Part shown: positions 26,101 through 29,100 of the stretch, in pieces
How positions within the stretch are numbered: the first letter of the stretch is position 1
Layout: every line of letters begins with the position of its first letter
NCBI RefSeq assembly: GCF_965641715.1
Contig: NZ_OZ282453.1
Source: Escherichia coli
Lineage (GTDB): Bacteria > Pseudomonadota > Gammaproteobacteria > Enterobacterales > Enterobacteriaceae
DNA length: 64,000 nucleotides
Strand: one strand, 5' to 3'
Position numbers: made by a program

Positions 26101-29100
26101 GTCAGACGCTGAATTTACGTGTTATCGGCGGACGTTATCATTACACGGCGGCAGGGCAACTGGCTCAGCATGAAGACACTTCTACGGTGCAGCTTAGCGG
26201 TGACCTGTTTAGGGGGCGCTGGGGCAATGATGGCGAGTGGATGCTTGGGATTGTAGGTGGCTACAGCGATAACCAGGGCGACAGCCGCTCGAATCTGACC
26301 GGAACTCGCGCCGATAACCAGAACCACGGTTATGCCGTTGGGCTAACCTCAAGCTGGTTTCAGCACGGTAAGCAGAAGCAGGGGGCCTGGCTGGATAACT
26401 GGTTGCAGTACGCGTGGTTTAGCAATGATGTTTCTGAACATGAAGATGGCGTGGATCATTACCATTCGTCGGGGATTATCGCCTCGCTGGAAGCGGGGTA
26501 TCAGTGGTTACCGGGGCGTGGTGTGGTGATTGAACCGCAGGCGCAGGTGATTTATCAGGGCGTGCAGCAGGATGATTTTACCGCCGCTAACCGTGCGCGC
26601 GTGTCACAATCGCAGGGTGATGATATTCAGACGCGGCTGGGTTTACACAGCGAATGGCGTACCGCTGTTCATGTCATACCAACATTAGATCTGAATTATT
26701 ATCACTATCCCCATTCGACGGAAATTGAAGAAGATGGCAGCACTATCAGTGACGATGCGGTGAAGCAACGGGGTGAAATAAAAGTGGGAGTCACGGGCAA
26801 TATCAGTCAGCGAGTTTCGCTGCGTGGTAGCGTGGCGTGGCAGAAAGGGAGTGATGATTTTGCCCAGACGGCAGGGTTTTTGTCGATGACGGTGAAATGG
26901 TAATCGCTGTCTGACCATCACTATTGCCGGATGCGGCGTAAACGCCTTATCTGGCCTACGGAGAGCATTTGTAGGCCTGATAAGACGCGGCAAGCGTCGC
27001 ATCAGGCATTGGCGCGGTTGCCGGATGAATCCAAACAACAACCTCACTTATTCTGCGTGTGCAGCATATAGTTCACATCCACGCCGGGGCCGAGTTTAAA
27101 AGTATTAGTGATCGGGTTGTAATGTAGCCCGGTTATATGTCGCTCTTTAAGGCTTGTCTGATCTACCCAGCCAAGCAGCTCTGCCGGTTTAATAAACTTC
27201 TTCACATCATGCGTGCCTTTGGGCACCATGCGCAAAATATATTCCGCGCCAACCACCGCCATCAGCCATGACTTGCCGTTGCGGTTAAGCGTCGAGAAAA
27301 AGACATCGCCGCCCGGTTTCACCAGTTGCGCACAGGCTCTGACCACTGACTGCGGATCGGGGACGTGCTCCAGCATCTCCATGCAGGTCACCACATCATA
27401 CTGCCCGGCATGTTTTGCCGCGTGCTCTTCCACGGTTTCCTGCACGTAATCCACCTGAATGCCGCTTTCCAGTGCGTGCAGTTTTGCCACCTGCAATGGC
27501 TCAAAGCCCATATCCAGACCGGTCACCGTCGCGCCTTCGCGCGCCATACTCTCGGCCAGAATGCCGCCGCCACAACCGACATCGAGCACCTTTTTGCCAA
27601 ATAAACCGCCAGCACGCTCGGCAATATAGCCCAGACGCAGCGGGTTAATGCGGTGCAGCGGTTTGAACTCACCTTCCAGATCCCACCAGCGGGAGGCGAC
27701 GGCTTCAAATTTAGCGATCTCTTCGTGGTCTACGTTATGGTTTACCGGCGATTTTTCGGCATTCATTGGCACTTCTACTCCGTAATTGGCAAGACAAACG
27801 AGTATATCAGGCATTGGATGTGAATAAAGCGTATAGGTTTACCTCAAACTGCGCGGCTGTGTTATAATTTGCGACCTTTGAATCCGGGATACAGTAGAGG
27901 GATAGCGGTTAGATGAGCGACCTTGCGAGAGAAATTACACCGGTCAACATTGAGGAAGAGCTGAAGAGCTCCTATCTGGATTATGCGATGTCGGTCATTG
28001 TTGGCCGTGCGCTGCCAGATGTCCGAGATGGCCTGAAGCCGGTACACCGTCGCGTACTTTACGCCATGAACGTACTAGGCAATGACTGGAACAAAGCCTA
28101 TAAAAAATCTGCCCGTGTCGTTGGTGACGTAATCGGTAAATACCATCCCCATGGTGACTCGGCGGTTTATGACACGATCGTCCGTATGGCGCAGCCATTC
28201 TCGCTGCGTTACATGCTGGTAGACGGTCAGGGTAACTTCGGTTCCATCGACGGCGACTCTGCGGCGGCAATGCGTTATACGGAAATCCGTCTGGCGAAAA
28301 TTGCCCATGAACTGATGGCCGATCTCGAAAAAGAGACGGTCGATTTCGTTGATAACTATGACGGCACGGAAAAAATTCCCGACGTCATGCCAACCAAAAT
28401 TCCTAACCTGCTGGTGAACGGTTCTTCCGGTATCGCCGTAGGTATGGCAACCAACATCCCGCCGCACAACCTGACGGAAGTCATCAATGGTTGTCTGGCG
28501 TATATCGATGATGAGGACATCAGCATTGAAGGGCTGATGGAACACATTCCGGGGCCAGATTTCCCGACGGCGGCAATCATCAACGGTCGTCGCGGTATCG
28601 AAGAAGCTTACCGTACCGGTCGCGGCAAGGTATATATCCGCGCCCGTGCTGAAGTGGAAGTTGACGCCAAAACCGGACGTGAAACCATTATCGTCCACGA
28701 AATTCCGTATCAGGTGAACAAAGCGCGCCTGATCGAGAAGATTGCGGAACTGGTAAAAGAAAAACGCGTGGAAGGCATCAGCGCGCTGCGTGACGAGTCT
28801 GACAAAGACGGTATGCGCATCGTGATTGAAGTGAAACGCGATGCGGTCGGTGAAGTGGTACTCAACAACCTCTACTCCCAGACCCAGTTGCAGGTTTCCT
28901 TCGGTATCAACATGGTGGCATTGCACCATGGTCAGCCGAAGATCATGAACCTGAAAGACATCATCGCTGCGTTTGTTCGTCACCGCCGCGAAGTAGTGAC
29001 CCGTCGTACTATTTTCGAACTGCGTAAAGCTCGCGACCGTGCGCATATCCTTGAAGCATTAGCCGTGGCGCTGGCGAACATCGACCCGATCATCGAACTG

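Follow-up and report, generated by a model that had tools for sequence, protein, structure and literature searches.

We asked whether the gyrA gene carried on a 64 kb stretch of Escherichia coli DNA (the whole stretch analysed, hereafter the window) encodes the quinolone-sensitive or a quinolone-resistant form of DNA gyrase subunit A. Quinolones bind the gyrase-DNA cleavage complex. The keto-acid at C3/C4 of the drug chelates Mg2+, and the water ligands of the metal are held by a conserved serine and an acidic residue of helix alpha-4. A first-pass annotation of the window had reported that the corresponding gyrA codons, 83 and 87, are both wild type. The answer therefore turns on three matters: the identity of the gene, the reading of these two codons, and whatever else in the allele or its surroundings could bear on the response to the drug.

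The gene and its surroundings

The window is an unbroken segment of the E. coli core chromosome extending from ais to ccmC. Its genes are, in order, ais, nudI, yfaZYX, rhmD, yfaVU, rpnE, glpCBA, glpTQ, a LysR-family regulator, an MFS transporter and inaA; yfaE, nrdBA, ypaB, yfaL, ubiG, gyrA, yfaA, yfaT, yfaS, yfaQ and yfaP; rcsC, rcsB, rcsD, micF, ompC, apbE, ada, alkB, yojI, mqo, eco and yojO; and napFDAGHBC and ccmABC. Every one of the 50-odd genes that we mapped is full length and free of stop codons, and the window holds no extra gene because the intergenic gaps are too small. We found neither IS elements nor acquired genes within the 64 kb, and no quinolone-resistance determinant in it. 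The positions of the features discussed below are collected in Table 1.

Table 1. Positions of gyrA features and of the micF-ompC locus in the window
Feature	Position	Strand	Remarks
Extended -10 element, TGtTATAAT	27860..27868	+	Read directly; lies within the 113 nt identical to K-12
gyrA CDS (DNA gyrase subunit A)	27913..30540	+	875 codons plus stop; ATG at 27913; from the ORF list
QRDR, codons 67-106	28111..28230	+	Protein identical to K-12
Codon 83, TCG (Ser)	28159..28161	+	Wild type; S83L would read TTG; direct reading and re-translation
Codon 87, GAC (Asp)	28171..28173	+	Wild type; D87N would read AAC, D87G GGC, D87Y TAC; direct reading and re-translation
Codon 122, TAT (catalytic Tyr122)	28276..28278	+	Arg121 directly before; winged-helix domain
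GyrA box, QRRGGKG, residues 560-566	29590..29610	+	C-terminal beta-pinwheel / DNA-wrapping domain
Codon 678, GAA (Glu; K-12 GAC, Asp), D678E	29944..29946	+	Sole protein difference from K-12
Terminator-like hairpin	30560..30577	+	20 nt past the gyrA stop; pattern match only
MicF antisense sRNA, rcsD-ompC intergenic	46941-47034	-	Rfam, 116.8 bits
ompC	47368-48489		Intact, variable; protein identity 96.8% to O157:H7, 91.1% to A30

Several lines of evidence identify the ORF as gyrA, as the first-pass annotation had it. Its product scored 1309.7 bits against the NCBIfam equivalog model TIGR01063, well above the cut-off of 877, and the matching DNA carries a gyrA annotation in 5,425 of 5,426 complete E. 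coli genomes. One genome in this collection returned no gyrA match, and one record has the match on a replicon that is labelled a plasmid; both are probably oddities of assembly or labelling. The protein aligns from end to end with E. coli GyrA structures such as PDB 6RKS (residues 1-875) and 3NUH. Arg462, which we take to be the residue of CcdB sensitivity, is kept.

We considered three ways in which the ORF might not be the functional gyrase A gene: as a paralogue of the parC type, as a pseudogene, or as an additional copy of gyrA that has diverged. None of the tests applied here lent support to any of these, and we put the chance that one of them is correct at practically nil. The reading frame of 875 amino acids is complete and has no internal stop, and the score of its product against the Gram-negative parC model (parC_Gneg), 581.5, falls under that model's cut-off of 628.9 even as the gyrA equivalog cut-off is passed. 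The GyrA box, the feature that separates GyrA from ParC, is in place. The gene is flanked by ubiG and yfaA, just as it is in K-12, A30 and O157:H7, and the ratio of silent to replacement differences from K-12 is 62:1, which speaks for strong purifying selection. The paralogue, the pseudogene and the divergent second copy are thus refuted by the HMM scores, the intact ORF, the GyrA box, the synteny and this ratio.

The ORF is therefore best read as gyrA proper. Its product is identical to GyrA of E. coli K-12 MG1655 (b2231, NP_416734.1) at 874 of 875 residues, both proteins being 875 residues long, and from this identity to the characterised E. coli enzyme we infer that it would introduce negative supercoils together with GyrB. 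The 113 nt of promoter and leader upstream of the start codon are likewise identical to those of K-12, and include an extended -10 element that is presumably the gyrA promoter. A consensus promoter scan left this promoter unflagged because it has no good -35 hexamer.

Codons 83 and 87 and the rest of the QRDR

Codon numbers follow from the start codon, which is shared with the K-12 annotation NP_416734.1 (875 aa, aligned without gaps from 1 to 875). The span 28150-28176, CATGGTGACTCGGCGGTTTATGACACG, covers codons 80-88 and translates as HGDSAVYDT. Direct reading and re-translation agree on Ser83 and Asp87, the residues of K-12, so the claim of the first-pass annotation that S83L and D87N/G/Y are absent stands, and the 17-residue peptide that it quoted around these codons is found in the translated ORF. 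A fresh translation, proposed there as the way a different residue might come to light, returned the same serine and aspartate. These calls are a deterministic reading to which a chance model is not applicable, and we found no evidence against either of them. None of the substitutions that define target-mediated resistance (S83L/W/A/V and/or D87N/G/Y/H) is present, both codons being wild type.

The wild-type description can be widened. When codons 67-106 were aligned to K-12 gyrA, as had been suggested, the proteins proved identical, and the only differences were silent ones at codons 85 (GTC>GTT), 91 (CGC>CGT) and 100 (TAT>TAC). Just beyond this region, codon 111 reads TCC. Since the whole protein matches K-12 except at residue 678, positions 51, 67, 81-84, 87, 106, 119 and 196 are wild type as well; apart from residues 83 and 87, the resistance positions that carry the K-12 residue are A51, A67, G81, D82, A84, Q106, A119 and A196. 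This supports extending the wild-type claim to the entire QRDR and, as far as the predicted product goes, to the entire protein bar D678E. Taking gene and residues jointly, the ORF is almost certainly the single chromosomal gyrA, predicted to yield a full-length, catalytically complete GyrA whose quinolone-contact residues are unmutated.

How common is this state? Resistant alleles (S83L, or S83L with D87N) are forms of the same gene at the same genomic position, with TTG at codon 83, and in some cases AAC at codon 87, where the window has TCG and GAC. The GTT found here at codon 85 also occurs in many resistant alleles. We searched 45-mers spanning codons 76-90 in the 5,426 complete E. coli genomes. 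The wild-type 45-mer of the window was matched exactly in 2,012 genomes, and the version with the synonymous K-12 GTC at codon 85 in a further 639, giving 2,651 genomes (49%, a lower bound) with an exact wild-type nucleotide sequence. The S83L 45-mer had a match of any kind in 2,295 of the 5,426 (at least 42%), 1,371 of which matched the S83L and D87N 45-mer exactly. The fractions are lower bounds as 364 genomes were left unclassified by these 45-mers, within which further silent or rare variants presumably fall. Resistant clinical isolates are probably over-represented in the collection; even so, the wild-type QRDR is the commonest single state, found in about half of the complete genomes, and it is the ancestral one.

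The D678E allele and its apparently mosaic nucleotide sequence

At the DNA level the gene differs from K-12 gyrA at 63 nucleotides (97.6% identity), 62 of them synonymous, and the QRDR, Tyr122, the GyrA box and the acidic tail of the protein are identical to those of K-12. The remaining difference, D678E, lies in the C-terminal domain, outside the QRDR and far from the quinolone pocket. The resulting protein is identical to WP_001281251.1 of E. coli A30, the D678E-only allele called 'gyrA-1' in PMC7067475, and a public protein collection has exactly this protein on at least 1000 contigs.

We asked whether D678E could be more than a neutral lineage marker, that is, whether it might subtly alter the supercoiling set-point, or affect how the C-terminal domain wraps DNA to a degree that shifts quinolone tolerance. 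D678E has been listed after enrofloxacin exposure, in one strain, among candidate resistance substitutions that are not in ResFinder (PMC11721436); this is a weak and isolated piece of evidence against neutrality. Data from larger sets of isolates point the opposite way. The substitution marks lineages including ST405, ST38, ST448 and ST1193, with or without S83L/D87N (PMC10638923), and one survey found it in the majority of its Shigella sonnei isolates (PMC10269460), so it follows descent regardless of the state of codons 83 and 87. Among the isolates that carried the allele with D678E alone in a machine-learning study of the E. coli pan-genome, 152 were susceptible and 1 was resistant, whereas those with S83L and D87N alleles were almost all resistant (PMC7067475). 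An exchange of Asp for Glu is moreover conservative, this one sits some 600 residues from the QRDR, and an allele found on a thousand contigs or more is a widespread one. An effect of D678E on supercoiling or tolerance is thus very doubtful, and we treat the substitution as a marker of lineage that is very probably neutral.

The nucleotide allele, on the other hand, is rare, with only 19 complete genomes at 99% identity or more. Over the initial 1,917 nt it has 100% identity to just one of the complete genomes, that of the baboon isolate A30. The 15 differences from A30 gyrA are all silent and all fall in codons 649-813, where divergence reaches about 3%, and the best matches of the 3' 552 nt are strains other than A30, at 99.1%. 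This confinement of the silent differences gives the allele a mosaic look and suggests recombination within the gene, with a breakpoint near codon 649.

Over the 25 kb from 20000 to 44999, the best match in a complete RefSeq E. coli genome was 98.7% (O157:H7 and O55:H7 strains). This distance raised the question of a Shigella source rich in pseudogenes, an origin that we rejected in view of the full-length genes, free of stop codons, and the lack of IS elements. Per E. coli genome, the median number of hits for the 25 kb query was 29, owing to REP/BIME-type repeat clusters, which score as Rfam naRNA4 and lie in the window at 20050-20113, 43090-43280 and 55068-55376. A draft contig, JAJASQ010000011.1 (GCA_021646925.1), is 100% identical over 9.7 kb (20151-29903), and YfaL has exact matches in the draft assemblies GCA_021646925.1 and GCA_014747825.1. 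The source lineage seems to be unrepresented among the complete genomes searched. The atoSCDAEB operon, which occupies about 7.5 kb of the rcsC-yfaP interval in K-12, is absent, leaving a yfaP-rcsC gap of 274 bp (39967-40240); A30 and O157:H7 lack the operon there as well. The yfaS gene (33021-37535), whose product of about 1,504 aa belongs to the alpha-2-macroglobulin family, is intact, whereas the K-12 MG1655 annotation gives it as a pseudogene. A hypothetical gene of about 1.07 kb that O157:H7 carries in the glpQ-LysR interval, and that is frameshifted in A30, is missing at 15490-16420, and the adjoining LysR-family regulator (15541-16419, minus strand) has 84.8% protein identity to its O157:H7 counterpart, far below its neighbours. 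At 49730-51444, Ada and AlkB show 95.2% and 93.4% protein identity to O157:H7, against 98-100% for the flanking genes, and ada-alkB may be another recombined patch.

Expected drug sensitivity of the target and of the strain

In E. coli gyrase both the serine and the acidic residue anchor the water-metal bridge, and the bridge chiefly serves to position the drug (PMC9917921). With Ser83 and Asp87 both present, the drug would be positioned in the cleavage complex and could poison the enzyme, and the allele is accordingly expected to be the drug-sensitive form of the target. On the strength of its sequence, the GyrA of the window should be drug-sensitive, and we infer sensitivity of the source strain from gyrA in the same manner. 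The strain would then lack the target mutation that comes as the first step and on which clinical fluoroquinolone resistance in E. coli rests.

A wild-type target is not proof of a susceptible phenotype, given that parC, parE, gyrB, the regulators marR/acrR/soxR and any qnr, aac(6')-Ib-cr, qepA or oqxAB that a plasmid might carry all lie outside the 64 kb; the first-pass annotation was correct to place parC and parE elsewhere. We therefore weighed whether the strain could be non-susceptible to fluoroquinolones through determinants beyond the window, in spite of its gyrA. Plasmid-borne qnr or aac(6')-Ib-cr, QepA or OqxAB-type pumps, up-regulated efflux or porin loss could each be responsible. 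The window is, after all, just 64 kb of the chromosome, and the single resistant isolate among the 153 with this gyrA allele (PMC7067475) shows that resistance despite a wild-type target exists. The other 152 isolates of the same set were susceptible, however, and the window, which has no acquired element, consists of intact core genes throughout. It also contains a locus with a bearing on drug entry: MicF and ompC influence the permeability of the outer membrane to quinolones. We saw no abnormality in the micF or ompC of the window, and inaA looks normal too. Finally, it is well established that parC mutations seldom occur in E. coli without a prior gyrA mutation. Non-susceptibility arising outside the window is on balance quite unlikely, if less so than an effect of D678E, and we retain the reading of a sensitive target in a strain that is presumably sensitive.

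The original observation is confirmed to the base, and the feature is an ordinary one that was already known. It adds nothing new on gyrase, quinolones or E. coli, and its value is practical only, as a routine negative in resistance screening: the genotypic call is that the strain has yet to take the first mutational step to fluoroquinolone resistance.
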